Shown here one piece after another: positions 1 through 17,960 of a DNA stretch of 64,000 nt. Position numbers and translations under genes: made by a program. The number at the start of each line of letters is the position of its first letter. The stretch's first letter is position 1. A model generated the notes under the pieces. It was not told the DNA's origin. It made no database searches and worked only from the letters and a program-made list of their open reading frames with translations. Origin of the DNA: Promethearchaeota archaeon (GTDB lineage: Archaea; Asgardarchaeota; Lokiarchaeia; Sigyniarchaeales; SOKP01); contig JAHPZI010000021.1 in assembly GCA_019058295.1 (NCBI GenBank), positions 128,001 through 192,000 on the forward strand. The letters are read 5' to 3'.

Positions 1-968
1 ATCCCTTTATTATCGATTAAAAAACATGAATGAAACGCCCCATTATCAGATAATTCTTGTAAGATTTCCTGAAGAATTCCTGCTTTTCCTTTTTTCTGCT
101 CCTCTTTTTCTTTAATTTTGTCTTGATCCTCTATTAACTCAGAATAAACGTTTATATTCTTTTGATAGGCAGTTTTTTCTAATTCAGCTTTTCCAATTTC
201 AAATTCTAACTTTTCCTTATCGAATTCAATTTTATTCTTCTCAAAATCATATTTATTTTTTTCTAACATCAATTGAATTTTTCTAATTTGCTTCTCTCTT
301 TCTTCGAGATCAATTTTTTTTTGTTCTAATTGCTTATTTATTTCTATAAAATGTTCTCTAGCCTCCTTTATTTTGTCACTTCGGCCTTTAAAATCAATCT
401 TAACATCTTCTAATTCTTTATTTTTTTGCTCAAATTCTTTTATTGATGTTTCAAATTCAATTCTTTTTTCTATTAATTCTTGGTTTCTATCTTCATATCT
501 CTGTATTGATTCTTCTAATTTATTATATCTATTATTATAATCGTCGATTTTCTCATTTAATTCTTTTAATTTGTTTTCGTAAAAGGTTTTTAGATTTTCT
601 TCCTCTTTGGTTAAGCTAATTTCTTTTGTTTCTAATTTTTTTTTATTTGTTTTAGAGTTTTTTGTTTCTAATTTTTTTTTATTTGTTTTAGAGTCTTTTG
701 TTTCCAATTTTTTTTTATTTGCTTTAGAGTGTTCTGTTTTTACTTTATTAGTTTCTGATGAGATTAGATTACTACTTACTTTTAGGGTTTCATCTTCTAT
801 ATTTTCCTTTATAATATCTGTATAAACCTCATCAATAACTTTTTTTACATCAGCATTAATATTTTCATCTTTAAGAAATTCTTCTTTTGTTTTAGATATA
901 TGTGATACATCATCCGTGAGACTTTTCTCATGGGCATTAATTTGTTTTTCATTATCTTTAATTGGCAT
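1..968 (-). CDS. Coiled-coil protein with a C-terminal Roadblock/LC7-like domain (partial, runs off the window start; not in ORF track)
   Basis: Manual translation from ATG at 968 (MPIKDNEKQ...) is open to position 1. Long E/K-rich heptad region, then ILQEILQELSDNGAFHSCFLIDNKG, matching the Roadblock N-terminal pattern of neighbouring genes. Confidence 0.75.
   Translation of the reverse strand, partial: MPIKDNEKQINAHEKSLTDDVSHISKTKEEFLKDENINADVKKVIDEVYTDIIKENIEDETLKVSSNLISSETNKVKTEHSKANKKKLETKDSKTNKKKLETKNSKTNKKKLETKEISLTKEEENLKTFYENKLKELNEKIDDYNNRYNKLEESIQRYEDRNQELIEKRIEFETSIKEFEQKNKELEDVKIDFKGRSDKIKEAREHFIEINKQLEQKKIDLEEREKQIRKIQLMLEKNKYDFEKNKIEFDKEKLEFEIGKAELEKTAYQKNINVYSELIEDQDKIKEKEEQKKGKAGILQEILQELSDNGAFHSCFLIDNKG
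624..730. repeat. Three tandem copies of a 36-bp coding repeat (SK[A/T]NKKKLETK[D/N/E])
   Basis: Unit beginning ttttgttt recurs at 624, 660 and 696, in frame within the minus-strand CDS. Confidence 0.9.
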
Positions 969-1020
969 TTTTAATCAAAAATTTGATATGTTATTAATTA
1001 TCCAGTATATTACTTTGACC

Positions 1021-1473
1021 TCATAATAGTGAGCCTAAACTTTCAAAGAGCTCCTCTTTAGAAGTTTCTTCTTTGAAATAGTTTTTAATCTCATCAATAA
1101 TTTTATTTGTTTCAAATTGAATTAATCCAAAATTAATCTTTTTAGAAAATATTACTTGAATAAGTACGTTTGAAAATACTCTTGTTATTAATATTGAAAA
1201 ATCTGCATCAAGGCTTTTGTCCATACCGGCATCAATCTTTATTTGTTCGAGCATTTTATTTTTATTGATTATTTCTATACCTCTTTCTGCCATTGATAAA
1301 ATACTTGCTGAGATCGCAGCAAAATTAATATTCATTTCCTCATATTGGTCGTTTTGTTCACTATTTGAAGCTATTACTAAACCATCTTCAGTAATTAAAG
1401 TTGAACTTTTAACGCCAGTATTTAAAATAAAATCATCTAAAAGATTTATTAATTTAATTCTAATATCTGACAT
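1021..1473 (-). CDS. Roadblock/LC7 (MglB-like) protein
   Basis: GVKSSTLITEDGLVIAS...FAAISASILSMAE pattern; paralogous to 3473-3925. Confidence 0.85.
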   Translation of the reverse strand: MSDIRIKLINLLDDFILNTGVKSSTLITEDGLVIASNSEQNDQYEEMNINFAAISASILSMAERGIEIINKNKMLEQIKIDAGMDKSLDADFSILITRVFSNVLIQVIFSKKINFGLIQFETNKIIDEIKNYFKEETSKEELFESLGSLL

Positions 1474-1556
1474 ATAACATCCTGTTTTTCTTTGTCAATA
1501 TTTTACTTTTTTAGCTTTAATTGTAAATAAAAAAAAAAAAATAATAATTAAATTCT

Positions 1557-1922
1557 TTAACCTAAAACCATTTTGATTTTATCCAGAGCAGCATTTATCT
1601 CGAAATCTATTAGTCCTATTTTGGCATCTGAGGGAGCTAATGCAATTAGAGCTGCTTGCGCTAATTGATGGACAACAATAAGATTATCCTTACCACTAAT
1701 TACATGTGAACTCACTTTACCTGATTTTAAAGTATCCGCAACCCTTGACCCAACTGATGTTAAAGCTGCAGTCATGGCAGCTATTCCACGCTCATCCATA
1801 TCTTTATGTAAAGCGCTTGCCATCATCTGACCTTTCAAAGATATAACTGCACTGTTTGATACTTCGGAATTCTTTTCTAAATCATATAATATGTCTTTAA
1901 TTTTTTCTGATCGAGCACTCAT
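1557..1922 (-). CDS. Roadblock/LC7 (MglB-like) protein
   Basis: SAVISLKGQMMAS...IAAMTAALTSVG...AKIGLI; GAGGT SD upstream. Confidence 0.9.
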   Translation of the reverse strand: MSARSEKIKDILYDLEKNSEVSNSAVISLKGQMMASALHKDMDERGIAAMTAALTSVGSRVADTLKSGKVSSHVISGKDNLIVVHQLAQAALIALAPSDAKIGLIDFEINAALDKIKMVLG

Positions 1923-1940
1923 TTATATTTACCTCTTTTT

Positions 1941-2066
1941 TTATTTTTTATCATAAAATTCACAAGTGTCCTTTTCCTTCGCTGTAACAAAAATTTTCTT
2001 TTTCTCACACCAGACTAATCCATCGGAATTTTCATCTCCTGCAAATTTACAATCACTTTTTGCCAC
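1941..2066 (-). CDS. 41-aa Cys-rich microprotein (MAKSDCKFAGDENSDGLVWCEKKKIFVTAKEKDTCEFYDKK); not in ORF track
   Basis: GTG start at 2066 after a GGGTGA SD that overlaps the upstream stop; TAA at 1943-1941. Fills the operon gap and aligns with the C-terminus of 4062-5525. Confidence 0.8.
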   Translation of the reverse strand: MAKSDCKFAGDENSDGLVWCEKKKIFVTAKEKDTCEFYDKK

Positions 2067-2072
2067 TTTAAC

Positions 2073-2549
2073 TCACCCCTCTAAATTTATCGTGAAAATT
2101 GTTGTATTTTCTTCTGGTTTCCACTCAGCTTTTTCAACTGATCCTGTTTTTCCGGTATTTTTTTCAATAGCACCATATAAAATAGCTACCATTGGACAGG
2201 GAGGAATATAATTGATATCATTGCCTCTAAGAACTTTTGTAATTGGTGCTAAAACACATTCTCCAAGATCAAGAACGACTTTACTATCACTAACCTCAAT
2301 AATGTTTGCTCTTTGACAAAAGCCAACTTCTTTAATCTTTTTAGTAAAATCTTCTGTAATAGATTTAACATCTGATCCTCCGACCTCTAATCCGACATCC
2401 TTCATTAAACCTTTAACACCATCTGAATGAAACATCTCTGCCATTTCATTTTGAATCAGTGGAATATTTAATCCCATTTTTAATAAGGAATTCACTGCTA
2501 CACCAAAACTAATGTTTGTAAATGTCAATAAATCTTTAAATTCTGTCAT
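2073..2549 (-). CDS. V4R/Bet3-like fold ligand- or metal-binding protein
   Basis: 158 aa; GFC...LGECVL...PPCPM Cys pattern and terminal beta strands (TTIFTINL) resemble V4R/MetOD1-type domains. Confidence 0.55.
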   Translation of the reverse strand: MTEFKDLLTFTNISFGVAVNSLLKMGLNIPLIQNEMAEMFHSDGVKGLMKDVGLEVGGSDVKSITEDFTKKIKEVGFCQRANIIEVSDSKVVLDLGECVLAPITKVLRGNDINYIPPCPMVAILYGAIEKNTGKTGSVEKAEWKPEENTTIFTINLEG

Positions 2550-2641
2550 ACTTTTTCATCTCTTTTTTTTTTTTATTATTATTTTTTTTAAAGAAAACTA
2601 TTTTTTTAGTAGATTTTTTTATGAAAAGTAAATGTTATAAG

Positions 2642-2712
2642 TTATATTTAAATCTTTTTATAAAGAAAGTTTTTGTCACTTTGTGGTTCCATATAAAAAG
2701 ATTTAAATATAA
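2642..2712. promoter_or_regulatory. Perfect 21-bp inverted repeat forming mirrored BRE-TATA promoters for divergent operons
   Basis: ttatatttaaatctttttata (2642-2662) is the exact reverse complement of tataaaaagatttaaatataa (2692-2712). Each arm reads purine-rich AAAAAGA + TTTAAATA outward. Confidence 0.7.
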
Positions 2713-2829
2713 GAAGAAAATTATATTTATGTCAGAAAAAATTATATAGAAAATGATATTTTTTTATATTTTATAAAAAGGTATCCATTTTTTAGAAAAT
2801 TATGAAGAAAAAATGAGGAGAGTTTAAAA

Positions 2830-3471
2830 ATTAGTGAAAAAAGTATAAAAATTTTCGTGACTGGATTTTTTAATTCGGGAAAAAGTACTTTAGTACATAC
2901 GATTGACGACAAAGCTATCCATGTAGAAAAGGAATTAAGCAAAACATTTAATGAAGAAAAAACAACAACTACTACTGGTTTTGATTTGGGAAGACTAGTT
3001 TGGGCTCGTCCAAACTTAAATAACGAAACTGAAGGGGTAATTATGAGTAAGACAGAGTATTTAAGAGATAAAGATGAATATTTGGGATGGCATATAAAAT
3101 ATGTCGAGTTAAAAGGCAGTCCTGGCCAAATGCAATTTTCTACTGTCCGTAAAATTCTAGCAAAGGGAAGCGACGGTGTGATCTTTTTAATTGATGGATG
3201 TGATTTAGCGAATATTGGCAATGCGTTAGTCGTTTTGGAAGAAATCAAAGCAGTTCTAGGTTCAAATATACCAATGCGAATAATTGCTAATAAATCTGAT
3301 AGGGATGACTTTCATGGATGTGAGGTTATTACAAGTATGATTGGTGAAACAGTATATGTGGGTTCTGGTAAATATAATGTAGGTATAAAAGATGCAATTA
3401 TTGAAGTACTTAAGACAATTTTATATGGTTTAGACCAAAATAAAATTTCAAAAGAGAGTGTGGTAGCTTAA
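2830..3471 (+). CDS. MglA/CvnD-like small GTPase
   Basis: G1 GFFNSGKST, G2 TTTGFDLG, G3 GSPGQ, G4 NKSD. Proposed ATT start at 2830 (SEKSIKIFVTG) after a GAGGAG SD; track start 2857 truncates strand beta1. Confidence 0.85.
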   Translation: MSEKSIKIFVTGFFNSGKSTLVHTIDDKAIHVEKELSKTFNEEKTTTTTGFDLGRLVWARPNLNNETEGVIMSKTEYLRDKDEYLGWHIKYVELKGSPGQMQFSTVRKILAKGSDGVIFLIDGCDLANIGNALVVLEEIKAVLGSNIPMRIIANKSDRDDFHGCEVITSMIGETVYVGSGKYNVGIKDAIIEVLKTILYGLDQNKISKESVVA

Positions 3472-3472
3472 A

Positions 3473-3925
3473 ATGGCTAACTTAAAAGAAAAACAAATTG
3501 TACAGATTCTGAAAGATTTTAGAGGAAGGACAAACATTCTATGTTCTATTTTACTCAATGAAGATGGTTTGATTATTGCATTAGATCAAGCTCAAATGAA
3601 CGAAGATGATGAGTATCATTTATCTTTCAGTGCAATTTGCTCTGGTATTGTTGCATTAGCAGAAAATGGTATTGAAACGATAAAAGAGGAAAATAATGTT
3701 AAAAAAATATCAATTCAAGCGGGAGAACAATTAGATAAGGAGGGATTTACAATTATTCTTCAATCGGTCACAAAAAATATTAAACTATCGATAATGTTTC
3801 CAACGTACTTGAATTTCGGTGTAATTCTTTTTGAATTAAATCAAACAATTCAAAGATTATCGGAGTATTTTTCAATTCCTGAACAAATCAAAAATCTCGA
3901 TGGTGTCAGTACATTAATGCAATAA
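3473..3925 (+). CDS. Roadblock/LC7 (MglB-like) protein
   Basis: ILCSILLNEDGLIIA...FSAICSGIVALAE; translationally coupled to the GTPase (TAA-A-ATG). Confidence 0.85.
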   Translation: MANLKEKQIVQILKDFRGRTNILCSILLNEDGLIIALDQAQMNEDDEYHLSFSAICSGIVALAENGIETIKEENNVKKISIQAGEQLDKEGFTIILQSVTKNIKLSIMFPTYLNFGVILFELNQTIQRLSEYFSIPEQIKNLDGVSTLMQ

Positions 3926-4061
3926 ATTAAAAGATTTATCACTTTAAAAAAAAGTTATTTGTAAAATTAAGGATTACAAACCAAAAGCAAATGTCTCAAG
4001 TTCAATTTATAATTGAAAATTATGAAAAAGATTTTATGAAACTCAGTAGAGAGGTTTTCTC

Positions 4062-5525
4062 GTGGTAATACGTCAATGTATCGTTAATAATATTAATGAA
4101 AAGAATATAAATAAATTTCTGATAGAGAGATTAAACCATAATAATCCTTTAGTACGAAGAAATGCTGCCTTAGAAATAGAAAATCAAGGTATCTTAATCG
4201 CAATTACTCCATTATTAAGTACATATTTTCCTGGATCTTCATATATAATTCCTCGTATAATCGGAAAAATAGGGAAGAAAAATATAAAACTCTTACTTAA
4301 AATTGCAATGAATAATTATAATGGAACGAGAATGCGGCAATATGCTATTGAAGGATTAGGAAAAATTGGAGATAAAAAGATACTAAATAATTTATACTTA
4401 CTTTTAAAGAGTGATGATGTTTATATTAGGAAAAGTTGTATATTAGCACTGGGAGACATTAGGGATAAAAATTCTGCTGGAAAGTTATTATATTTATTAG
4501 ATATAGAAGTTGATTGGATTAAACCCTATATTATTTGGTCACTTGGAAAATTAGGTGATTTAAATTGTTTAAATAAACTAATTGAAATGTTATCCATAAA
4601 AAATTTAAATTTCATCACTAAGAAAATAATTATTAAAGCATTAGGATGGATTGGAGATAAAAGAGCGGTAAAAAAGCTCATTGAACTTTTAAATGAAAAA
4701 AATTCAGGTTTAGAGGATTATATTCTATTTGCTTTGGAAAACATAGGTGATACAAAAGTATTACCAATTTTAATAAAAAATTACTTGAAACCTATATGGT
4801 TTTTAAAGGAACACAATAAATGCATAATAAATAAGTTATCTCCTCAATGGAGAAATTTATTAAACAATTATGATTTAAAAATTTACAATAGAGAAGACTT
4901 ACCTCCACATTTTTATACAAACATCAATAATGAGGATGATTGGTTTTATGGTTGTTTAAACAAATCTCATTACATCTTAAATTCTCAGAAAAAAATCATT
5001 GGTTGTTTAAATTTAATTTATTTAATAAATTATGAGAAAGTTATTCTTTTTTATATGGATACAATTGAAATAAAAGAAGAATTTCGCCGTCAAAAGATAG
5101 GAACAGAATTAGTTAATCAAGTCATTAATGAAATTAAAAAGAAATTCGAGAGATTTAATATCTTTTTGTTAGTTGCAAAATGTAAGCAATATAAATTAAA
5201 ATTTTTTAGTACATTAGGATTTATACCTATAAAATTAAGAAAAACAGGGGTAGGTGCACATTGTATCATGAGTTATCCATTTACAGAAGATTCAGAAAGA
5301 AATTGTAAAAGATTGTTTGAATATTTTTGTTGGAGAGAAGAAAAAAAGGAGATTATCTCATCAGATTGTAAATATGCGTATAATCCCAATCCAACTGGTC
5401 TATATTGGTGTAAAAAAAAAATGATTTATGTTACAGGGTTAGAAAAAAAAAAATGTCCATTCTATATTAAAGAAAAGGAAATAATTAGTGAGAAGAAATT
5501 TTTTGATTTAAAAGAGTTTTTCTGA
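4062..5525 (+). CDS. HEAT-repeat / GNAT acetyltransferase / Cys-rich domain fusion
   Basis: Repeated ALGxIGDxxA HEAT (PBS-lyase type) units; GNAT motif A IEIKEEFRRQKIGTEL and KFFSTLGF; C-terminal DCKY...WC...CPFY. Confidence 0.75.
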   Translation: MVIRQCIVNNINEKNINKFLIERLNHNNPLVRRNAALEIENQGILIAITPLLSTYFPGSSYIIPRIIGKIGKKNIKLLLKIAMNNYNGTRMRQYAIEGLGKIGDKKILNNLYLLLKSDDVYIRKSCILALGDIRDKNSAGKLLYLLDIEVDWIKPYIIWSLGKLGDLNCLNKLIEMLSIKNLNFITKKIIIKALGWIGDKRAVKKLIELLNEKNSGLEDYILFALENIGDTKVLPILIKNYLKPIWFLKEHNKCIINKLSPQWRNLLNNYDLKIYNREDLPPHFYTNINNEDDWFYGCLNKSHYILNSQKKIIGCLNLIYLINYEKVILFYMDTIEIKEEFRRQKIGTELVNQVINEIKKKFERFNIFLLVAKCKQYKLKFFSTLGFIPIKLRKTGVGAHCIMSYPFTEDSERNCKRLFEYFCWREEKKEIISSDCKYAYNPNPTGLYWCKKKMIYVTGLEKKKCPFYIKEKEIISEKKFFDLKEFF

Positions 5526-5600
5526 TAGATTTAGTTTGAAAAAAAGGGTCACTTTTGGTGGTTTAATATACTGAAGGAAGAAAGGATTAATTTTGAAAAT

Positions 5601-6254
5601 TTGGTAAATAACGTTAACATAGAATGCCCAATATGCAAGACAATGAAAGTGTTAAAAATTCCATTAAAAATTATAAATCAGAGTAAGCAACTTACTACTG
5701 TGTCTGTACCAATAGGATTAGTGTGCAAACATAATTTTCAAGCTTTCATAGATAAAAATTTTAAAGTGAGAGGATATCAAAAAGTTGATTTTCATTTTTC
5801 AAAAATGGAATTTTATGAGGGAGGCATCAACTCTACTATTTCTGACTTAGAAAATGAACAAAAAGTAGAAGAACAATTGATTCAGCTCAGTTCAAAGCCA
5901 ATATTTATTGAAATTTTAAAACTTTTAAGAACTTATGTAGATGATGAGGATATTTTAGGAAGTGCTCTCTTTACATTAGAAGGAAAGGTATTATATTCAT
6001 CCTTACCATTGATGACATTAAATAATATAATTAGAGAATTTGAAATTAGAAATCAGAAGGAATTAATTCAAGTAGAAAAACTTTTTCTGGTTTTAACTAA
6101 TAAACAGAAAATATTCTCGCAATTTCTTGAGATTAGGGGTTATTCTCTTATTATAACTTTAATTTTTTCAAAAAAAATTCAATTAGGTATGGGAGATTTA
6201 CACTTAAGGGAATTAATAAAAAAAATATTAAAAATTAATCCATGTATGAATTAA
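5601..6254 (+). CDS. Zn-binding N-terminal domain plus Roadblock/profilin-like C-terminal domain
   Basis: CPIC...VCKHNFQAFIDKNFKVRGYQKVD (shared with 40161-40700); C-terminal ILGSALFTLEGKVLYSS. Confidence 0.6.
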   Translation: MVNNVNIECPICKTMKVLKIPLKIINQSKQLTTVSVPIGLVCKHNFQAFIDKNFKVRGYQKVDFHFSKMEFYEGGINSTISDLENEQKVEEQLIQLSSKPIFIEILKLLRTYVDDEDILGSALFTLEGKVLYSSLPLMTLNNIIREFEIRNQKELIQVEKLFLVLTNKQKIFSQFLEIRGYSLIITLIFSKKIQLGMGDLHLRELIKKILKINPCMN

Positions 6255-6324
6255 TAAACGAGGGAAAGAAGATATATTAAATCAAATAGAGCTATTAAAT
6301 GGATAAAAATGAAATGATAATAAA

Positions 6325-8160
6325 ATGGAAAGCAAATTAAATCAAGAAAATCAATATTTAAAATCTATTTTTGACTCAATTTTCGATGAAATAATGATTC
6401 TTGATAGAAACTACCAAATATTAGATGTGAATAAGACATTCTGCGATAAATATAATGTTTCAAAAGAGGATGCTATAGGATCAAAATGTTATAACTTAAC
6501 ACATGGAATTAATATGGTTTGTAAACCACCTGAATGTATCTGCCCTGTAGAAAATGTTTTAAAAACAGGAGAATTCTGTGAATCAATTCATTCCCATCAT
6601 ATAGATGGAGATATAAAATATATAGAACTATTAGCTTTTCCAATTAAGGTTAATGGTGGTTCTATTGAGCAAATTGTAAAAATTGGAAGAGATATTACAG
6701 ATAAGATCAAAGCAAAAAATATATTAAAAGCTTCCGAAGATAAATTTCGAAATTTATTTGAAAAGTTACCTTTTTCAATATTCCTATTAGATTCAAATTA
6801 TAAGATCATTGAATGTAATAGCATATCAGAAATATATATGAATGAATCTAAAAATGAATTAATAGGTATGAATTTCATAAATCTTTTTTCAATCTCGAAA
6901 AAAAAGGTTAAAGAAATCAATGAGATTTTAACAAATGTCATTAAATTTGATTTAAGTGAAATTTTAGAATTGAAATTTATTAATTATAATGGGCAATTAG
7001 CTTGGGCGGAACTTTTCTTTTCATCTGTAATTCTAAGGAATGAAAAATATATCCAAATCATTTTACAAGATATTACTGAAAGAAAATTAATAGAAGATAT
7101 TATAAAGAAAGAGAACCAGAAATTAAGAGAATTAGATCAATTAAAAAAGCAATTAATGGCTCAATTATCAGAAAAATTGAAGTCTCCACTAAATAATATT
7201 TTTGATATTACTGAAATTCTTCTGAATTCCTACAGAGAACAATTGGATGATGAAATTATAGAACTTTTGGATATGATCAAAAAAGGAGGAGAAAGATCAA
7301 TTGATATGGTTGGAAAAATGCTTGAGATCTCAAAAATTGAGGCTGATAAGCTTGAACTTAACTTTCAAACAGAAAATTTATTTGAAATTATTAAGGATTC
7401 AGTGAAAGAAATTAATGATCAAATAAAAAATCAAAATATTATTCTAAATTTAAATCTTACAGAGGATTTGTACTCTGATATCGATAAAATTAGAATTAAA
7501 TATATAATTAAATACTTGTTAACAAGTATCATTAAAGCCAAATCCTTAAAAAAAGAAATAATTGTTTCATTGATTCAAAATAACCATAATGCTGAAATAT
7601 CAACTTCTTTTAGTGGTATTGGTATAAAAAAATTAAAATCTCTTTCTGAGTTGGAATTCTCAAGAGAAATCATTGATCTACATGGAGGCAATTTAATTAT
7701 TAATTCTGAAAGTAAGAAAAAGGAAACCAATATTGTAATAAAATTACCTCTAAAAAATTGGAAGGAATCTTTAATTCATATTTACATTATATATAGGTCT
7801 GGAATCCCACTATTCGATTATTCCTTTATTGAAAAGACTAAAGCTGACAATACTACTCTAATTTCAGGGAGCATTATTGGTATGATGACTCTTTTAAAGG
7901 CAATAATACATGGGAAAAAACAGATCAAAACAATTGATCATGGGGATAGGAAATTAATGTTTGAGATGAATAGCACTAATGATGTGTCTTTTATTCTATT
8001 AGTTAAAGAGGATTTACACATATTGAGAAAAAAATTGAATGATTTAATTGAAGTTTTCGATAAAAAATATAGATATTTAATCAAAAAAATAGATATGACT
8101 CATAGTATTAGTAATTTATGGGAAGAACTCCATGTACTTATTGAAAAATTTTTTGGATAA
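6325..8160 (+). CDS. PAS-PAS / degenerate histidine kinase / longin-like domain fusion
   Basis: Two PAS-PAC units (RDITD, QDITE). H-box reads LSEKLKSPL with no His; HATPase eroded. C-terminal IHIYIIYRSGIPLFDYSF...LISG...IKTIDHGDRKL. Confidence 0.7.
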   Translation: MESKLNQENQYLKSIFDSIFDEIMILDRNYQILDVNKTFCDKYNVSKEDAIGSKCYNLTHGINMVCKPPECICPVENVLKTGEFCESIHSHHIDGDIKYIELLAFPIKVNGGSIEQIVKIGRDITDKIKAKNILKASEDKFRNLFEKLPFSIFLLDSNYKIIECNSISEIYMNESKNELIGMNFINLFSISKKKVKEINEILTNVIKFDLSEILELKFINYNGQLAWAELFFSSVILRNEKYIQIILQDITERKLIEDIIKKENQKLRELDQLKKQLMAQLSEKLKSPLNNIFDITEILLNSYREQLDDEIIELLDMIKKGGERSIDMVGKMLEISKIEADKLELNFQTENLFEIIKDSVKEINDQIKNQNIILNLNLTEDLYSDIDKIRIKYIIKYLLTSIIKAKSLKKEIIVSLIQNNHNAEISTSFSGIGIKKLKSLSELEFSREIIDLHGGNLIINSESKKKETNIVIKLPLKNWKESLIHIYIIYRSGIPLFDYSFIEKTKADNTTLISGSIIGMMTLLKAIIHGKKQIKTIDHGDRKLMFEMNSTNDVSFILLVKEDLHILRKKLNDLIEVFDKKYRYLIKKIDMTHSISNLWEELHVLIEKFFG

Positions 8161-8200: not shown

Positions 8201-9100
8201 GTGGTTGAAATTACTACAATAAATGGGAAAGTAAGTCATCATTATATCTGTCCTGAATGTGGTGGTAGTATCATATTAGATCAAGAGAGAGGTGAAACCG
8301 TTTGTAGTCAATGTGGGTTGATAATTAATGATAAGTTTTTTATTACTTCATATTCTGAGAAAAGGGCATTTACTCGAGAAGAAAAATCTAGAAAGTCGAG
8401 GACTGGAATATTAATTTCTCCTTTATTATCAGATTTAGGATTATGCACGTTAATTGATAAAAAGAACATTAATAATCCTGATTTAAAAAGGGCTGTGAAG
8501 AGGGATTCATATTTAACATGGAAAAAAAGGAATTTATTGATTGCATCAATAGAATTAAAAAGGCTTAGTACAAATTTAGGGATTCCTTGCCATGTAATAA
8601 GTGTGGCATTAAGGTTCTATAAAGAAATTTTTAAAAACAATTTGTTAAAAGGTAGAACCATTAAAGGGATGGTTGCTGCGTGTTTATACGCTGCGTGCCG
8701 GAATGAAAATCTACCAAGAACATTTCAAGAGATATTAAATGAATCTCCGATTAGTTGTAAGACAATTAAAAAATGTTTTAAAATAGTACTCAACTACTTC
8801 AATTTAAAATTGCCACAAGCAAACATAATCTCTTTTATTCCTAGATATACTTCGGCACTAGGTCTAAATAATGATGTTGAAAAATTCGTTATAAAAATTT
8901 TACAAAGTTATTTAAGAAAGGTATCTAATAATGGCAAAAATCCAAAAGGACTCTACGCTGGTGCAATTTACCTTGCTTCAAAACTAAAAAATTCTGGGGT
9001 GACGCAAAAGGAAATCTGTGAAGTCGTAGATACGACCGAAGTCACGCTCAGGTCTAGATACAAAGAGATTATTGAGAATATTAATTTCTTGACAATTTAG
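8201..9100 (+). CDS. tfb: Transcription initiation factor IIB paralogue
   Basis: CPECG...GETVCSQCG Zn ribbon; cyclin repeats KGRT...AACLYAACR and GKNPKG...TEVTLRSRYKE. Confidence 0.92.
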   Translation: MVEITTINGKVSHHYICPECGGSIILDQERGETVCSQCGLIINDKFFITSYSEKRAFTREEKSRKSRTGILISPLLSDLGLCTLIDKKNINNPDLKRAVKRDSYLTWKKRNLLIASIELKRLSTNLGIPCHVISVALRFYKEIFKNNLLKGRTIKGMVAACLYAACRNENLPRTFQEILNESPISCKTIKKCFKIVLNYFNLKLPQANIISFIPRYTSALGLNNDVEKFVIKILQSYLRKVSNNGKNPKGLYAGAIYLASKLKNSGVTQKEICEVVDTTEVTLRSRYKEIIENINFLTI

Positions 9101-9141: not shown

Positions 9142-9417
9142 TTATTTCCTTAAAGCTTTTTCATCAATTTTTCCAATCACATTTAAAGGTAAATTATCGG
9201 AAATTTCAATTATTTTAGGTAACTTGTATTTAGCTAAATTGTCTTGAGCGTATTTTAAAATATCTGCTTTTGTCTCTTCATTATTCTCGTATCCTTCTTT
9301 CAAAAGTACATAAAATTTGACAATTTCGGAGCTTGAACGATCTGGATTGGGTAATCCCTCGCATTCACAAAGCTCAATTGGAGGATGTATATTGTATACT
9401 ATTTTTTTAAGTTTCAA
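9142..9417 (-). pseudogene. Remnant C-terminal domain of an acyl-CoA synthetase (AMP-binding_C)
   Basis: HPPI...LAKYKLPKIIEISDNLPLNVIGKIDEKALR; there is no room for the large N-terminal domain. Confidence 0.7.
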
Positions 9418-9465: not shown

Positions 9466-9855
9466 CTATTTATTCATAGAAATCTGAGGTTTTTTTATCC
9501 TTAGTGCCTTTTCAATGTTCTCTATTAATTTTTTATTTGAAAAAGGTTTCGTTTTAAAGCACAAAACTCCAATAGAAAGTGCAATTTCCTTAATGGTAGT
9601 ATCGGCACTTGCGAATATTATTTTTGCCTCACTATTGATACTAAGAATCTCTTTTGAGGCTTCAATTCCGCTCTTAATAGGCATTCGATGGTCCATTATG
9701 ATAATATCTGGCTTTATGGGGAAATTTTTATACATTTCTACTGCTTCCTTTCCATTTTTAGCAGTGCCAATAACATCAAAGCCAGAGGCTCTCAGCAATA
9801 TCTCATATAATTGCAGTATTGCTAATTCATCCTCAACAATAAAGATAGATGCTAT
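9466..9855 (-). CDS. Single-domain response regulator (CheY-like receiver)
   Basis: IFIVEDE acidic pocket (upstream of track start 9798), PDIIIMDHRMP, FASAD, KPF. Needs an ATA start at 9855. Confidence 0.9.
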   Translation of the reverse strand: MASIFIVEDELAILQLYEILLRASGFDVIGTAKNGKEAVEMYKNFPIKPDIIIMDHRMPIKSGIEASKEILSINSEAKIIFASADTTIKEIALSIGVLCFKTKPFSNKKLIENIEKALRIKKPQISMNK

Positions 9856-9856
9856 T

Positions 9857-12800
9857 TTATATCAGCTCCGGAATTAATATAATAAAATTGCTTCCTTGTG
9901 AGGGATCTCCTTTAACTTTATCTTCTACCCAAATATCTCCATTGTATTCTGATAAAACTCTTTTTACAAGTAATAATCCCAATCCCATACCATGAGTTTT
10001 TTCCTTTCGATCAGAAATCCCTTTGAAGATATGTTCTTTCATTACATCTGGAACACCAATTCCATTATCGATGAATTCAAATTTTGCATAATTAGTACCA
10101 TTTTTAAACTCTCGAGAGATTTTTACAAAGATTTCAATTCTCTTATTCTCATTATATTTAATACCATTAAAAAGGATATTTTCAAAGACATCTAATAAGA
10201 GTTGGTTTGCGTTGACCTTAACTTCTTTGATCTGGGATTCAATAGCAATATTTATGTCTTTATTGGGGAGGCTTTTGTGAATAAAGCCCTTTGCTTCTTT
10301 TAAGATTTGAATTCCATCAACTTTTTCCAGAGGACTCACTGTTTCTGTAATTTCTGAGAGTTTTCTAATATTTGAAACGAGTTTTGATCCCCTTATTAAT
10401 TGATCATTAATAATTATCATTAATTCGTTGATCTTATTTATTTTCTCAGGTTTATTTTCCCACATTGAAAGGAGCCCTAAAGAGGATTGTATATTTTGAA
10501 GTATATTACTTATATCATGAGCAAATAAATCCTTATAGAATTCCGCTCGCTCATAAGCCTCCCGAAAATCTTCTTCGGATTTTTTTAATTTCTGTTCGGC
10601 CACCACCTCTTCTGTAATATCTCTTGCGATACATAAAATTCCTTCGGTTATTGGATACACACTTACTTCATAGTGTCCTATATGACCATTAGGAAGATTA
10701 AATGAATCCCTCACACGGTTTGGGATTCTTGAATTCATTACATCTTCGTATGTCTTAAAGAAGGGAGTTTGTTCTATACCCGGAAACACGTCAGTTATTT
10801 TATGCCCTAACAAATTATCTCTTGGCATATTAACTAATTTTTCAGCTAATTTATTAACTAAGGTGTATACCCAATCTCGATTTATCGCGTAAACTCCATC
10901 TGTTATAGATTCTAAAAGCATCTCATAGCGTTCTGACATTGTACGGTATTTTTCTTCAGATTCTTTTAAGTTTTCTTCAGCATTTTTCTGCTCAGTTATA
11001 TCTATAAATATTTCTTGAACTGCTGGTTTATTATTAAAAGTAATGAGTGAAGCATATATTTCAACAATTCGAGGAGTACCATCTTTTCGAATAATACGAA
11101 ATTGATAATTTGGTGGAACTGGTTTTCCTTTTAAACGTTCCTTATGGCGATTTAAAACGAATTCTCTATCATCTGGATGTATTAGGCTTATAACTTCTTC
11201 TTTAGACATAGACAGTAAATCATCAACGCTATATCCCAAGATATTCGATAATGCCTTATTTGCGAATATAATTTGAACTTCTTGAAGAATACATATTCCT
11301 TGTAATGATTTTTCTACCAACATTCGATATTTTTCTTCTGATTCTTTTAATTTTTGTTCCGCTTTTTTGCGCTCTGTAATGTCCCTTATAAACATGACAA
11401 CCTTATTTTCAGAAAAATATAGAAAACGACCTTCATAATAATGTATCCCATCTTTCATTTGTAGTTTATATTCAAATATCTGTTGTTCTTTTGAATTAAT
11501 TGCTTTTTTAATATGTTCTGCGCTTACTCTACCCACTTCAGGAGGTAATATTTCTATAGCTTTTTTTCCTAGGAATTCCTCTGGAGGTATGTATAATTCT
11601 TCCATTTTGCCACTATATTCTAAAATGGTGGTATCAGCAGCCACTAAGAAAAATAAATCAGGTAGCGCTTCAAAAATAGCCCTAAATTTCTTTTCAGATT
11701 CTTTTAATTTTTGTTCTGCTTTCTTTCTTTCAGTGATATCTCTCATAATAGATAAATAAGTGTTTTCGTCCTTCTCTCCAATACTATCCATATTCAATAA
11801 TGCCGTAAAAGTGCTATTATCCTTCCGCCTTAATTCAACCTCAAAATCTCGAACAAAACCTTTTTCACTTAATATTTGAAATAATTCAGAACGTTGTTCA
11901 TTAGAAACATATGTATTTTGGATACCAACCATGTTTACCTCTTCCTTGCTATAACCAGTAATCTCTTGGAGAACCGAATTCATTTTTAGTACCTTTCCAG
12001 GAGACACAACTCCAATTCCTATTGGTGATTTTTCAAATAATAACCGATATGATTCTTCTGATTCTTTCAATTTTTGTTCTGTTTTTTTGCGATCGGAAAT
12101 ATCCCTAAGAATGGCTAAATCAGCAGGCTCTCCCTTCCATTCTGTTTTCGCGGCATTTATTTCAACACATACGTTGGGTCCATCCTTTTTAAGTAAAATT
12201 GTTTCATATTTTGCGAGGGTTGGTTTACCATCAATTCTTTTCTTAAATCTTTCCATAACCTTATTAATTTCATCAGGATGCAATAAATTTTTAATATTGA
12301 GTTTGAGCAATTCATCAATACTATAACCTGTTACCTCTGAAGCTCGCTCATTTGCATAAACAATTTTGCCTTCTCCCATTCCAATGAAAATACAGTCATT
12401 AGCATTATTAGCTATATCTCTAAAATTCTTCTCAGATTCTTTTAATTTTTCTTCAGCTTTTTTCTGTTCGGTTATATCCTGGATTATGGCTTGGAAAAAA
12501 TTTTCTCCTCGTATTGTTATATTAGCAATATCAGATTTAATCCTTGCAATTTCTCCATCTTTTCTTTTAACTTCTAATTCCTGTGGTTTTATTCCACCAC
12601 CTTTAGTTATTGCTTGAAATCTTTCTTTTAATACATTGATCATACTTTCCGAATAAAAAGGTAATTGTAAGTAATTTTGACCAATTAGTTCATCTCTTGA
12701 ATAACCAAATATGGTCTCAGTACCTGAATTGCAATCAATAATATTTCCAGTGAAATCAAGCAATGCAATTGCATTTGGCGAATTTTCATATATATTTCGA

Positions 12801-13237
12801 TATTTCTCTTCTGATTCTTTTAATTTTTGTTCTGCTCTCTTGCGTTCTGTAATATTACGCCATATTGCTTGTATATATTTCTTATTGTGTATATTTATTG
12901 CCTTGGCACTTACATAAACATCTATTATTTCACCGCTTTTTGTTATTTGTTTCGTTTCAAAGAGATCAGCTCCTTCTGTTAGAACTTTGAAAAAATGTCC
13001 CTTAACTTCTTCTGGTGTTTCGATAATTTCAAAGGCTGGTATCTTAAGTTTCTTAAATTCATCACGTGTATAGCCTAAGTTTTTATATGTTACATCATTG
13101 AAATCTACTAGTTCTCCTGTCTCTGGATCGATGAGTACAATTGAGTCTGCTGCTTGTTCGAATAAAGCGCGATATTTTATTTCACTATCCCTTAATAACT
13201 CATCATCATCATTTTCTTCATTTTTAGAATCGTTCAA
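9857..13237 (-). CDS. Cytoplasmic sensor histidine kinase with seven PAS domains
   Basis: Seven DITE..KAEQKLKESE-type linkers; H-box FAHDISNIL; N-box NILFNGIKY; DNGIG; GMGLGL. Confidence 0.93.
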   Translation of the reverse strand: MNDSKNEENDDDELLRDSEIKYRALFEQAADSIVLIDPETGELVDFNDVTYKNLGYTRDEFKKLKIPAFEIIETPEEVKGHFFKVLTEGADLFETKQITKSGEIIDVYVSAKAINIHNKKYIQAIWRNITERKRAEQKLKESEEKYRNIYENSPNAIALLDFTGNIIDCNSGTETIFGYSRDELIGQNYLQLPFYSESMINVLKERFQAITKGGGIKPQELEVKRKDGEIARIKSDIANITIRGENFFQAIIQDITEQKKAEEKLKESEKNFRDIANNANDCIFIGMGEGKIVYANERASEVTGYSIDELLKLNIKNLLHPDEINKVMERFKKRIDGKPTLAKYETILLKKDGPNVCVEINAAKTEWKGEPADLAILRDISDRKKTEQKLKESEESYRLLFEKSPIGIGVVSPGKVLKMNSVLQEITGYSKEEVNMVGIQNTYVSNEQRSELFQILSEKGFVRDFEVELRRKDNSTFTALLNMDSIGEKDENTYLSIMRDITERKKAEQKLKESEKKFRAIFEALPDLFFLVAADTTILEYSGKMEELYIPPEEFLGKKAIEILPPEVGRVSAEHIKKAINSKEQQIFEYKLQMKDGIHYYEGRFLYFSENKVVMFIRDITERKKAEQKLKESEEKYRMLVEKSLQGICILQEVQIIFANKALSNILGYSVDDLLSMSKEEVISLIHPDDREFVLNRHKERLKGKPVPPNYQFRIIRKDGTPRIVEIYASLITFNNKPAVQEIFIDITEQKNAEENLKESEEKYRTMSERYEMLLESITDGVYAINRDWVYTLVNKLAEKLVNMPRDNLLGHKITDVFPGIEQTPFFKTYEDVMNSRIPNRVRDSFNLPNGHIGHYEVSVYPITEGILCIARDITEEVVAEQKLKKSEEDFREAYERAEFYKDLFAHDISNILQNIQSSLGLLSMWENKPEKINKINELMIIINDQLIRGSKLVSNIRKLSEITETVSPLEKVDGIQILKEAKGFIHKSLPNKDINIAIESQIKEVKVNANQLLLDVFENILFNGIKYNENKRIEIFVKISREFKNGTNYAKFEFIDNGIGVPDVMKEHIFKGISDRKEKTHGMGLGLLLVKRVLSEYNGDIWVEDKVKGDPSQGSNFIILIPELI

Positions 13238-13366: not shown

Positions 13367-13490
13367 ATGAAAAAAAAAAAGAAAATATACCATCATCACA
13401 GTTATTCTCATTATTTTAATTATCCCAATTCTTATTGGAATATACAAAGAATATCTGTTTGTAAGAGCTTTATTTTTTGGTATAAATTAA
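13367..13490 (+). pseudogene. Small single-TM protein interrupted by a one-base shift in an A11 tract
   Basis: GGAG SD + ATG + A11. Removing one A gives MKKKRKYTIITVILIILIIPILIGIYKEYLFVRALFFGIN*, ending just before the convergent lysZ stop. Confidence 0.45.
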
Positions 13491-13492
13491 AA

Positions 13493-14302
13493 TTAAACAG
13501 TTATAGTTGTGCAATTATCATTATTAAGAGCTTTGATAATTGGATTCTCTCGTAGACCAGAAGCGATAATTACTTGCTTAATTCCTTCACTGGCAGATTT
13601 TAGGGCGACAACAACCTTGGTTTTCATACCTCCAGTTACATTTTCAAGGATTAATTCAGAGTTTTGCCTATTTATATGATTAATAAGGTTCTTATTTTTA
13701 TCTAATACTCCATCTACATCAGTTAAAAGGATTAGTTTATCTGCTTTAGTCGCTACTGCGATTGCATCAGACATTCTATCACTATCACCACCAACAATCT
13801 CATTATCTTCGCTGATAGCAACAGAAGCTATAACTGGGATATAATTTTTCTCCCAGAGAATTTCGATTAATCTGGTATTCACTTTAGTTGGTTTCCCCGT
13901 GTAATTATCCTTAAGCTTTCTTTTACCATTCAAAATAACCATTGCTTTTTTAAATCTTTCAGCTATTATTAGACCCCCATCTACTCCCGATATACCAACA
14001 GCCGGGAGATCCTTAGCAAGCATTTCTTTTACAAGGCGTTTATTATTTAGGCCCGCAACCACCATAATATAAATATCTCTGGTTTCCTCGTCTACATAAC
14101 GAGCTTTGTAACCTTTCGTAGAGTGAGTAAAAATCTGGGGTTTACCCATCTTTTCAGCCACAGCTGTAATTACATCAGCTCCAGCATGACATAAAATTAA
14201 TTTCTTGTTTTCAGCATGTAGTTTTACTAAATCTGAGATCAGAAAATCTAGGTTTTCCTTTACTAAATCTCCTCCCACTTTAATAACAATCTTTTCTGAC
14301 AT
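13493..14302 (-). CDS. lysZ: [LysW]-aminoadipate/glutamate kinase (ArgB/LysZ family)
   Basis: KIVIKVGG, RYVDEET..IYIMVVAGLNNK, GISGVDGG, LTDVDGV, GGMKTKV. Confidence 0.8.
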   Translation of the reverse strand: MSEKIVIKVGGDLVKENLDFLISDLVKLHAENKKLILCHAGADVITAVAEKMGKPQIFTHSTKGYKARYVDEETRDIYIMVVAGLNNKRLVKEMLAKDLPAVGISGVDGGLIIAERFKKAMVILNGKRKLKDNYTGKPTKVNTRLIEILWEKNYIPVIASVAISEDNEIVGGDSDRMSDAIAVATKADKLILLTDVDGVLDKNKNLINHINRQNSELILENVTGGMKTKVVVALKSASEGIKQVIIASGLRENPIIKALNNDNCTTITV

Positions 14303-16955: not shown

Positions 16956-17960
16956 TTAAGATTTTATGAATGAGTTGATTATCTTACTGTGATTATAACT
17001 ACTTCCTATCTTATTTAATGAGGCTCCATTTAGCTGCTGATAAGTTATATTATTTATTTTCATTAACTCATTAATCCTTTTTCTTAAAGTACCTTCAGTA
17101 ATTAGAGCAGCTTCAGATAAATCTTTTTGCAAACTAGTATCTCCATTTATTTTTGAAGATATATAAAGTGCTGCTGCGGTGAATCCTTTTGGATCCTTTC
17201 CTAAAAGTTTAAATTGGTTTTTTTTACTATTTTTTAATATTTTTAAAGCAACATTTCTAGTTTTCATTGATAAGTTTAGATCCTCTTGAATTCTGTCAAT
17301 ATATAGTTCAGGTTCAATGTGCTTAAGTTTAATATCCAAAATGGGAAAAACATTTATATATATAATTTTAAGACTCCTATAGAGATCTTTCTTTGATAGT
17401 TCTGAATCTTGGATAATTTCTTCCAAAAAGATTGGAAGTTCATACAACCGAATTGCACTATATACTGAAGCAGATAATAAACTTAAGATACTTCTCCCTT
17501 TAGTTAATTTTAATTTTAATGCCTGCAGATATATTTTTAAAGCTTCACTTGAAACAAAGCTAGGAAATTTCAATTGGTTTTGTAAACGGTAGAGTATTGG
17601 TAAAGCAATATTTAGATTTCTTTCATATCCATTAATTAAATCCCTATTAATTTTAGCTAATCTTTCATATTTCAGTTTATTTTTAGGTCTTAAATAATTT
17701 CCTAATGCATCTTTATAAGAGGTTAATAGGGTTCTGGGTCCAATTCGGCTATATACACGTTCATTTATTTGTCGATTTTTTTTTTCTTCTTGAGTATGGG
17801 CTCTTATCCCAGAAAGATCTATTATTCTTGAAAAAGTTGTTCCACAATTTGTGCATGTATAGTATCCTTCAGTACTAATAATATTTGGAGCTTCACAGCA
17901 ATTTTCATTCAATTCATCAGAAAAATCTAAATAATTCAATCTAACAGTATTAACAAGCAT
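16956..17960 (-). CDS. tfb: Divergent transcription initiation factor IIB paralogue
   Basis: CC...YTCTNCG Zn ribbon; KGRS...SASVY; GKDPKGFTAAALY; TEGTLRKR. Confidence 0.85.
   Translation of the reverse strand: MLVNTVRLNYLDFSDELNENCCEAPNIISTEGYYTCTNCGTTFSRIIDLSGIRAHTQEEKKNRQINERVYSRIGPRTLLTSYKDALGNYLRPKNKLKYERLAKINRDLINGYERNLNIALPILYRLQNQLKFPSFVSSEALKIYLQALKLKLTKGRSILSLLSASVYSAIRLYELPIFLEEIIQDSELSKKDLYRSLKIIYINVFPILDIKLKHIEPELYIDRIQEDLNLSMKTRNVALKILKNSKKNQFKLLGKDPKGFTAAALYISSKINGDTSLQKDLSEAALITEGTLRKRINELMKINNITYQQLNGASLNKIGSSYNHSKIINSFIKS

Follow-up and report, generated by a model that had tools for sequence, protein, structure and literature searches.

We analysed a 64,000-nucleotide (nt) stretch of DNA from a Promethearchaeota archaeon, hereafter the window (C21:128001-192000; contig JAHPZI010000021.1 of assembly GCA_019058295.1), and found that the divergent gene cluster at its left end is probably a G-protein signalling unit complete in itself, representing an Asgard version of the MglA-MglB and conservon systems. 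A GTPase/Roadblock signalling locus of the MglA/conservon kind had been proposed here in an original prediction made from the sequence alone, and this proposal is supported by the G3 and G2 motifs of the GTPase, by the Roadblock matches and by synteny. The assembly has a size of 3.2 Mb and is 79% complete (GC content 24-32%). Coordinates marked L001 refer to the DNA adjoining the window on the left, in its own numbering, and L002, L004 and similar labels denote homologous loci in other genomes. Homologues of the window proteins were found almost only in metagenome-assembled genomes (MAGs) of Promethearchaeota (Lokiarchaeota), Thor-, Hod- and Odinarchaeota, and the host is an Asgard archaeon of the Promethearchaeota. 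Its DNA occurs in sediment metagenomes, and no RNA data set was listed as containing it.

The cluster consists of two divergent gene arms starting from a 280-nt spacer (2550-2829, GC content 15%). The left arm, on the minus strand, encodes in order a V4R-like protein, a Cys microprotein (Cys41), the Roadblock proteins RoblB and RoblA, and a coiled-coil-Roadblock protein; the right arm, on the plus strand, encodes the GTPase, the Roadblock protein RoblC, a HEAT-GNAT protein, a Zn-ribbon-like protein (Zn protein) and a PAS pseudokinase with a longin end, with genes spaced by 1-136 nt inside each arm. All ten open reading frames (ORFs) of the original prediction were present, and its domain calls (three Roadblocks, coiled-coil-Roadblock, Zn-Roadblock, V4R, Cys microprotein, HEAT-GNAT and PAS-pseudokinase-longin) were each borne out on individual testing. 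The locus it had placed at 1-8160 is real, with the unit running past both of these ends; the genes it listed are there, and it had missed a paralog of transcription factor B (TFB, TFIIB), an RHH-HisKA-REC protein (RHH, ribbon-helix-helix), the flanking kinases and the nature of the block as an island.

The GTPase (2830-3471, plus strand, 213 amino acids, aa) carries the motifs G1 GFFNSGK[ST]T, G2 TTTGFD, G3 KG[SC]PGQ and G4 NKSD, plus GS[AG]K, and its family has a mean column identity of 71% across four phyla. The G3 motif K-G-[S/C]-P-G-Q is invariant in 19 GTPase sequences, and the universal G3 Asp is absent. Loss of this Asp defines the MglA family, with TxxGQ in group 1 and GTPGQ in groups 2-5; in groups 2-5, which include the conservon GTPase CvnD, Thr replaces the Arg finger and MglB is coupled (PMC4316618). 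The Arg-finger position in switch I of the locus GTPase (K-T-x-T-T-T-G-F-D) is Thr or His and an intrinsic Arg finger is absent, so the GTPase fits groups 2-5 and not group 1. The family criteria further ask for a single-domain GTPase of less than 240 aa with an MglB/Roadblock gene within four genes (Wuichet & Sogaard-Andersen 2014, PMC4316618); the present GTPase is single-domain, with a length of 213-216 aa, and RoblC starts 1 nt downstream of it. We found no longer fused forms of the GTPase, which is weak evidence. Its nearest relatives outside Asgard archaea (~30% identity; Nitrososphaeria and bacteria) have the motif LFGTPGQ and an adjoining Roadblock gene. These GTPGQ-type relatives lack a conserved interswitch insert of ~28 aa between beta-2 and beta-3 (window 2956-3045, residues ~43-72 of the ATT-start protein described below), which holds invariant W, RPN, MS, EY and W. 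The Pfam small-GTPase families matched the protein only below their cut-offs. On its motifs and gene context we assign the GTPase to the MglA/CvnD type, as had been called from the sequence, G3 being GxPGQ rather than DxxGQ.

The GTPase gene is present as called, with its start placed upstream, at ATT 2830 rather than GTG 2857. Starting at the gene caller's GTG 2857 leaves the protein without strand beta-1. The reading frame stays open as far back as 2806, with no in-frame ATG, GTG or TTG ahead of beta-1; the Met of the 216-aa orthologues falls on ATT 2830, which GAGGAG precedes by 9 nt. If the A-run at 2805-2813 had one base fewer, an ATG at 2802, now out of frame, would be brought into the GTPase frame, and the start would reflect either ATT initiation or a homopolymer error. 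No indel in 2000-4000 was seen in the contigs of a second sample, where the one that covers the A-run begins just 8-16 nt ahead of it.

We scanned one genome per species with a sequence pattern, yielding 27 Asgard loci, and then searched these for partner genes by tblastn using the window proteins as queries. The gene order recurred at more than 20 loci in MAGs of Promethearchaeota, Thor- and Hodarchaeota, in full in 6 (L002, L004, L007, L012, L016 and L027) and in large parts in 15 more. On the left, the conserved order is histidine kinase, RHH-HisKA-REC, coiled-coil-Roadblock, RoblA, RoblB, Cys41 and V4R, diverging from the GTPase; on the right it is GTPase, RoblC, GNAT-Cys with or without HEAT repeats, Zn-Roadblock, TFB and pseudokinase-longin. 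Order, orientation and tight spacing are kept across loci at protein identities of 45-80%. RoblC directly followed the GTPase in 22/22 loci with a GTPase identity of at least 60%, and each of the 12 loci whose upstream DNA extends for about 2.9 kb or more has both RoblA and RoblB. The V4R/Cys41 and GNAT-Cys genes occurred together in 10 loci and were jointly absent from 4 (L013, L015, L019 and L020), where the GTPase, the Roadblocks and the longin pseudokinase are retained, mostly along with TFB; V4R/Cys41 and GNAT-Cys look like one optional sub-module. TFB was found in 7 homologous loci, and several MAGs carry two copies of the locus. In a different family (G075), a GTPase with 41% identity is encoded in a one-strand operon of HTH-PAS (HTH, helix-turn-helix) and V4R-Cys41-RoblB-GTPase-Robl-histidine kinase, with a GNAT gene nearby. 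Because the gene order recurs and the core survives at about 40% GTPase identity, we take the cluster to be a real functional unit. Among the grounds on which the original prediction was to be given up was a gene order not conserved in relatives, and the order is clearly kept.

Three of the partners are stand-alone Roadblock proteins. RoblB (1557-1922, minus strand, 121 aa), a canonical Roadblock/LC7 protein, and RoblC (3473-3925, plus strand, 150 aa) matched Pfam Robl_LC7 over the cut-off, with E-values of 1.2e-9 (38.2 bits) and 2.2e-5 (24.5 bits) respectively, and RoblA (1021-1473, minus strand, 150 aa) matched at 1e-4 (22.4 bits), slightly below the 23-bit cut-off. Both RoblB and RoblC sequences match solved Asgard Roadblock proteins: searches against the PDB yielded 7f8m (2.6e-9), 7yh1, 9jue and the conservon protein CvnB5 (3leq, 4.5e-3) using the RoblB sequence, and 7f8m (1.4e-5), CvnB5 (1.2e-3) and MglB (1.3e-3) using the RoblC profile. 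RoblB is the best-conserved partner, with identities of 68-82% in the homologous loci and 43-50% in the distant L038 and L039; RoblA orthologues are 60-71% identical in the homologous loci. We performed profile-profile comparisons (hhalign) using alignments built from 16-22 orthologues, in which RoblA matched RoblC at 99.8% and both matched RoblB at 94%. RoblA and RoblC are paralogs, and RoblC is the likely cognate MglB/CvnB analogue. The predicted complex of two RoblC, the GTPase, GTP and Mg scored 0.17 and 0.09 against a mark of 0.32, in a single run without controls, and these scores speak neither for nor against binding.

Two further proteins matched Roadblock/LC7 (PF03259) solely through profile-profile comparison. 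The first is the coiled-coil protein, whose gene adjoins RoblA in 14 loci: the window holds the N-terminal 322 of its 478 aa (1-968, minus strand) and the gene continues to L001:17532, with most of the Roadblock-like domain (residues ~295-420) lying left of the window at L001:17532-18000. Its residues 288-478 matched a merged Roadblock profile at 89-92% with an E-value of ~1e-6. The second is the Zn protein (5601-6254, plus strand, 217 aa), which has an invariant CPxC...CxH at its N-terminus and whose C-terminus matched the same profile at 91% over 105 columns (E-value 1e-6). As negative controls, the GTPase and V4R-like sequences scored below 1%. With three stand-alone and two fused matches, the unit therefore encodes five Roadblock-type domains. 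The Zn protein had no sequence match among PDB chains, whether searched as a single sequence or as a profile. Its N-terminal ~80 aa (5601-5850; CPxC...CxH...DKNFxVRGYQxVD) are a widespread, unnamed module that has no Pfam family, with 654 cluster representatives at an E-value of 1e-3 or less and fusions to PAS, PARP-like, NosD/beta-helix and Ig-like domains. KTNKKKLETK[DN]S repeats, encoded by a 36-nt tandem repeat at 622-746 (3.5 copies, 89% match), occur in the N-terminal low-complexity part of the coiled-coil-Roadblock protein.

The last gene of the right arm (6325-8160, plus strand, 611 aa) encodes two PAS domains, a DHp domain, a degenerate HATPase and a longin domain. The H-box T-S-E-x-L-K-x-P-L lacks His in 11/11 orthologues, with S282 invariant; the HATPase_c match (20.5 bits) is under the 26.4 cut-off, and the N-box Asn, DxGxG and GxGxG are all missing from the window subgroup, whereas a sister subgroup keeps NDGVGL. 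Because the phospho-acceptor His is absent from the 11 orthologues and the ATP-lid boxes are degenerate, we classify the protein as a predicted pseudokinase. PAS1 has the invariant cysteines C55, C66 and C73, and the C-terminus ends in KYFG, with no LPxR motif. Residues 471-611 were modelled as a longin with the topology beta-beta-alpha-beta-beta-beta-alpha-alpha and a moderate predicted local distance difference test score (pLDDT) of 75. All of the top 50 structural matches of this C-terminus are longins, including Fuzzy (Z 13.8), Sec22b (13.5), AP sigma (12.5), TRAPPC1/4 (11-11.6) and SRX (10.4-11.1), and Pfam Fuz_longin_1 was weakly matched by 3 of the 11 orthologues. We also considered this C-terminus as a Roadblock domain and rejected it, the profile-profile comparison giving 3% and the structure being a longin.

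The first gene of the left arm (2073-2549, minus strand, 158 aa) encodes the V4R-like protein, which had no Pfam (V4R PF02830, TRAPP PF04051), NCBIfam or PDB sequence match, even by profile. Its AlphaFold2 model (pLDDT 92) has a two-layer alpha/beta fold over the full length and matched TRAPPC3/Bet3 with Z of 10-10.9 (148 residues aligned at 10.9), followed by Thor-TRAPPC3 (9.5), MopR/PoxR (9.3-9.7), H-NOX (7-8.5) and the V4R protein MJ1460 (7.5). The model places the protein in the V4R/TRAPPC3/H-NOX fold, with TRAPPC3 and V4R sensors statistically tied; in an Atlas search with this protein, a TRAPP cluster first appeared at rank 16. Three cysteines (C78, C98 and C118) are invariant. A homologue with 67% identity in a Lokiarchaeota MAG (P0272, 525 aa) is called as a fusion behind a coiled-coil/repeat region of ~365 aa, an arrangement that parallels the coiled-coil-Roadblock architecture and may be a gene-call artefact.

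Cys41 (1941-2066, minus strand, 41 aa, GTG start) has an invariant C-x13-C-x14-C and identities of 56-87% in 13 loci and 44% in L038, and this conservation shows that the small Cys ORF called in the original prediction is real. Its homologue within the GNAT protein is the segment of residues ~432-470 (99.4% by profile-profile comparison). The GNAT protein (4062-5525, plus strand, 487 aa) consists of HEAT repeats (Pfam HEAT_2, 1.3e-21), a GNAT acetyltransferase domain (Acetyltransf_1, 2.1e-7, 31.7 bits, over the cut-off) and the Cys41-like domain. Seven loci keep the GNAT and Cys domains and lack the HEAT part, and the HEAT repeats appear to be a further optional addition. The GNAT motif A (Q/R-x-x-G-x-G/A) reads RRxGLG in most orthologues and RRQKI/LG in the window (RRQKIG) and in L006. 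Three invariant cysteines recur in PAS1 of the pseudokinase (6325-6700), the V4R-like protein (2073-2549), Cys41 (1941-2066) and the C-terminal domain of the GNAT protein (5361-5465), a repeated pattern suggestive of metal or Fe-S sites that are shared or bridging.

We propose that the Cys-rich PAS pseudokinase and the V4R/Cys41 pair would sense a ligand, metal or redox signal; V4R and PAS had been suggested as inputs before, and this is plausible. The pseudokinase would act in the role of CvnA, the conservon sensor, holding or releasing the GTPase through its longin domain with no transfer of phosphate, by analogy with SRX-SR-beta and longin guanine-nucleotide exchange factors (GEFs). Roadblock dimers, as MglB/CvnB-like GTPase-activating proteins (GAPs) or scaffolds, would determine whether the GTPase is in its GTP or GDP state; RoblC would be the cognate Roadblock, possibly with RoblA as hetero-partner. 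The state of the GTPase would be passed on to transcription through the TFB paralog (8201-9100, plus strand; Pfam TFIIB, 2.4e-38) and RHH-HisKA-REC, and protein acetylation would be an accessory output branch in the variant that bears V4R, Cys41 and GNAT. As a candidate output, TFB is at least as good as acetylation.

The actinobacterial conservon, as described by Komatsu 2006 in the summary given in PMC4316618, comprises a kinase-like sensor (CvnA), a Roadblock protein (CvnB), a DUF742 protein (CvnC) and a GTPase (CvnD). The present unit resembles it in combining a kinase-like sensor, Roadblock proteins and an MglA-family GTPase with GxPGQ at a single locus that is conserved and multi-copy, in having a core devoid of a classic response-regulator output, and in the sequence matches of RoblB and RoblC to the CvnB5 structure. 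However, its sensor is a soluble PAS-PAS protein that lacks the phospho-acceptor His and ends in a longin, whereas CvnA is a membrane HAMP kinase with an LPxR tail; it has no CvnC/DUF742, five Roadblock domains instead of one, an interswitch insert of ~28 aa in the GTPase, and an added V4R/TRAPPC3-fold protein, Cys microprotein, GNAT and TFB. With the MglA-MglB(-MglC/RomY) systems of Myxococcus and Thermus, in which the Roadblock dimer is the GAP and extra Roadblock paralogs modulate the switch, it shares a GTPase devoid of the G3 Asp next to a Roadblock gene; it differs from their MglA in the Thr at the position of the intrinsic Arg finger, in weak whole-sequence similarity and in gene context.

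Several observations weigh against reading the cluster as such a switch. The whole-sequence similarity of the GTPase to MglA is weak (1e-8 with the profile), and whole-sequence scores place it no nearer to MglA than to Rab21, Sar1 or 8oun; its gene has no canonical start codon. Among the ORFs of the locus, Pfam detected no CvnC/DUF742 homologue, so that the unit is not a strict conservon. Close paralogs of the GTPase (50-56% identity; L024-L026 and L028) showed no partner genes by tblastn. The GNAT motif A of the window has a Lys at the first Gly, and the contacts between the GTPase and its partners are putative.

The original prediction had gone further in proposing that four to five Roadblock domains form one Ragulator-like hetero-oligomer around the GTPase, with V4R and PAS as input and GNAT acetylation as output, which we consider improbable as a whole. 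Five distinct Roadblock-domain proteins are indeed co-conserved with a single GTPase; the paralogs RoblA and RoblC are kept on opposite arms, as a heterodimer would predict; long (150 aa) and short (121 aa) Roadblocks coexist, comparable to LAMTOR2/3 versus LAMTOR4/5 (Tran et al., PMC10933270); and the coiled-coil-Roadblock protein could be a scaffold. As in Ragulator-Rag/EGO, several different Roadblock-fold subunits are tied to GTPase signalling. However, Rags heterodimerise and carry a C-terminal Roadblock domain by which they dock on Ragulator, whereas the locus GTPase is single-domain, of MglA type and not Rag-like, and no LAMTOR1-like wrap was recognised among the locus proteins. Roadblock structures solved from Asgard archaea and bacteria are homodimeric (PMC10933270), GNAT, V4R and Cys41 are dispensable, as their joint absence from the four loci named above shows, and TFB, a conserved member, is left out of the scheme. 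The likeness to Ragulator is only an analogy.

A bolder reading, which we regard as quite unlikely, takes the island that carries the cluster (described below) as a prokaryotic precursor to the longin/Roadblock/TRAPPC3 GTPase-regulator machines of eukaryotes, mobile between Asgard lineages as a cassette. The TRAPPC3-fold protein with its three-Cys partner, the longin of the dead kinase and hetero-pairing Roadblocks would then load and unload an MglA-type GTPase, the interswitch insert would be the docking site, and the dedicated TFB would be the readout.

Less likely again is a proto-TRAPP/longin GEF, in which the TRAPPC3-fold protein, the longin domain and the Roadblocks would make up an exchange complex comparable to the TRAPP core (Bet3 plus longin subunits), Mon1-Ccz1 or Fuzzy-Inturned. 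The best matches of the V4R-like model are TRAPPC3/Bet3, aligned over the full length, the best longin match is Fuzzy, a subunit of the Rab23 GEF, with TRAPPC1/4 at Z 11-11.6, and the V4R-Cys41-Robl-GTPase core is kept down to 41% identity. Like the TRAPP core and Thor-TRAPPC3 (7yh2/7yh3), the locus combines a TRAPPC3/V4R fold bearing a candidate Cys metal site with a longin fold and a small GTPase encoded nearby. Yet the V4R sensors MopR/PoxR lie within 1 Z unit of TRAPPC3, a tie; there is no detectable sequence similarity to Thor-TRAPPC3, which has four cysteines where three are invariant here, and these three suggest a V4R-like metal site and ligand sensing. The V4R gene is absent from several otherwise complete loci, which would be odd for an essential GEF, and fold likeness alone is no proof of function.

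The MglA/conservon-type unit lies in a 20.2-kb block between two copies of an 80-nt imperfect direct repeat, 85% identical over 81 nt: the left copy (L001:11186-11265) sits 6.7 kb left of the window and the right copy is at 13469-13548, overlapping the 3' end of a gene of the amino-acid-kinase family (13493-14302, minus strand). In two genomes of the same genus (98-99% complete) the GTPase and V4R genes are missing, and L001:..11265 continues straight into window:13469.. with just one 80-nt sequence at the junction. The left half of this sequence corresponds to that of the left copy and its right half to that of the right copy, making it a hybrid. Because these empty sites carry one hybrid repeat copy, the block constitutes a discrete indel whose ends are att-like; the island ORFs that were tested yielded no integrase or recombinase family. 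Close orthologues of the GTPase were found in 2/40 genomes of the same family and 0/2 of the same genus. The left part of the island encodes RHH-HisKA-REC with an intact H-box, an architecture noted for Lokiarchaeum (PMC5847659), and a 1671-aa multi-PAS/GAF kinase; the right part encodes TFB and, at the island's right end on the minus strand (9466-13237), a stand-alone receiver (9466-9798) and a 1126-aa multi-PAS histidine kinase (9857-13237). The multi-PAS kinases flanking the unit are predicted to be genuine kinases.

We give little credence to the view that a mobile island merely brings together several independent systems, namely the GTPase-Roadblock pair, the two-component proteins, GNAT and TFB: the repeat-flanked indel, the patchy distribution within family and genus and the presence of two copies in several genomes would fit it, but the same order and orientation are found across Promethearchaeota, Thor- and Hodarchaeota at 45-80% identity, the Cys41 domain and the RoblA/RoblC paralogs are common to both arms, and the kinase and GNAT recur even in the distant single-strand version.

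Asgard genomes encode dozens of small GTPases and more than 100 Roadblock/longin proteins, with genes mostly outside operons (PMC10933270; Liu et al., bioRxiv 10.1101/2020.10.19.343400), and for this last reason matching a regulator to its GTPase is hard in these archaea. Tran et al. 2024, who solved Asgard Roadblock and TRAPPC3 structures, note that operons joining GTPase genes to Roadblock, longin or TRAPPC3 genes are generally lacking in MK-D1 (PMC10933270), whereas here the GTPase is clustered with Roadblock, longin and TRAPPC3-fold genes. According to Liu et al., few neighbourhoods of eukaryotic signature proteins are conserved, and their Fig. 5c shows Asgard NPRL2-like longins fused to two-component domains; as in the present pseudokinase, longins are joined there to PAS/HisKA/HATPase modules, but what is given are domain architectures, not the present neighbourhood, the loss of His or a link to an MglA-type GTPase. 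In the literature on Asgard Roadblock, kinase, conservon and MglA proteins we found no description of the cluster, and as our coverage was incomplete an earlier one is possible.

The cluster is a variant of the known MglA/Roadblock/conservon G-protein switch, distinctive in its Asgard context, its TRAPPC3-fold and longin partners and its cassette-like mobility. As a conserved exception to the scattered arrangement, it puts a single GTPase together with about ten candidate partners, TRAPPC3-fold and longin-fold proteins among them, and offers concrete candidate GTPase-regulator pairs in the closest archaeal relatives of eukaryotes; these candidates are all small and seemingly soluble, hence accessible to co-expression. 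It would also indicate that Asgard Roadblock, longin and TRAPPC3 folds can be wired into ordinary prokaryotic sensing (PAS, two-component, TFB) around a prokaryote-type GTPase, which tempers their reading as evidence of membrane trafficking. The island boundaries provide a rare clean example of a gain/loss polymorphism of a signalling unit within an Asgard genus.

Searches with Rfam and ARAGORN gave no match in the window or L001, and PADLOC found no defence-system family. The divergent promoter region between the two arms (2550-2829) contains a perfect 21-nt inverted repeat, TTATATTTAAATCTTTTTATA, at 2642-2662 and 2692-2712 with a 29-nt spacer, and TTTAAATA is contained in both arms of this repeat. 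It was found by script, the general repeat search not having listed it, and a script comparison showed that it is not kept in 11 homologous loci. The genome has at least 8 TFB paralogs, a second of which lies 8 kb to the right, outside the island (16956-17960, minus strand). Within the island, a 91-aa ORF (9142-9417, minus strand) matched solely the C-terminal domain of AMP-binding enzymes and is probably a gene fragment.

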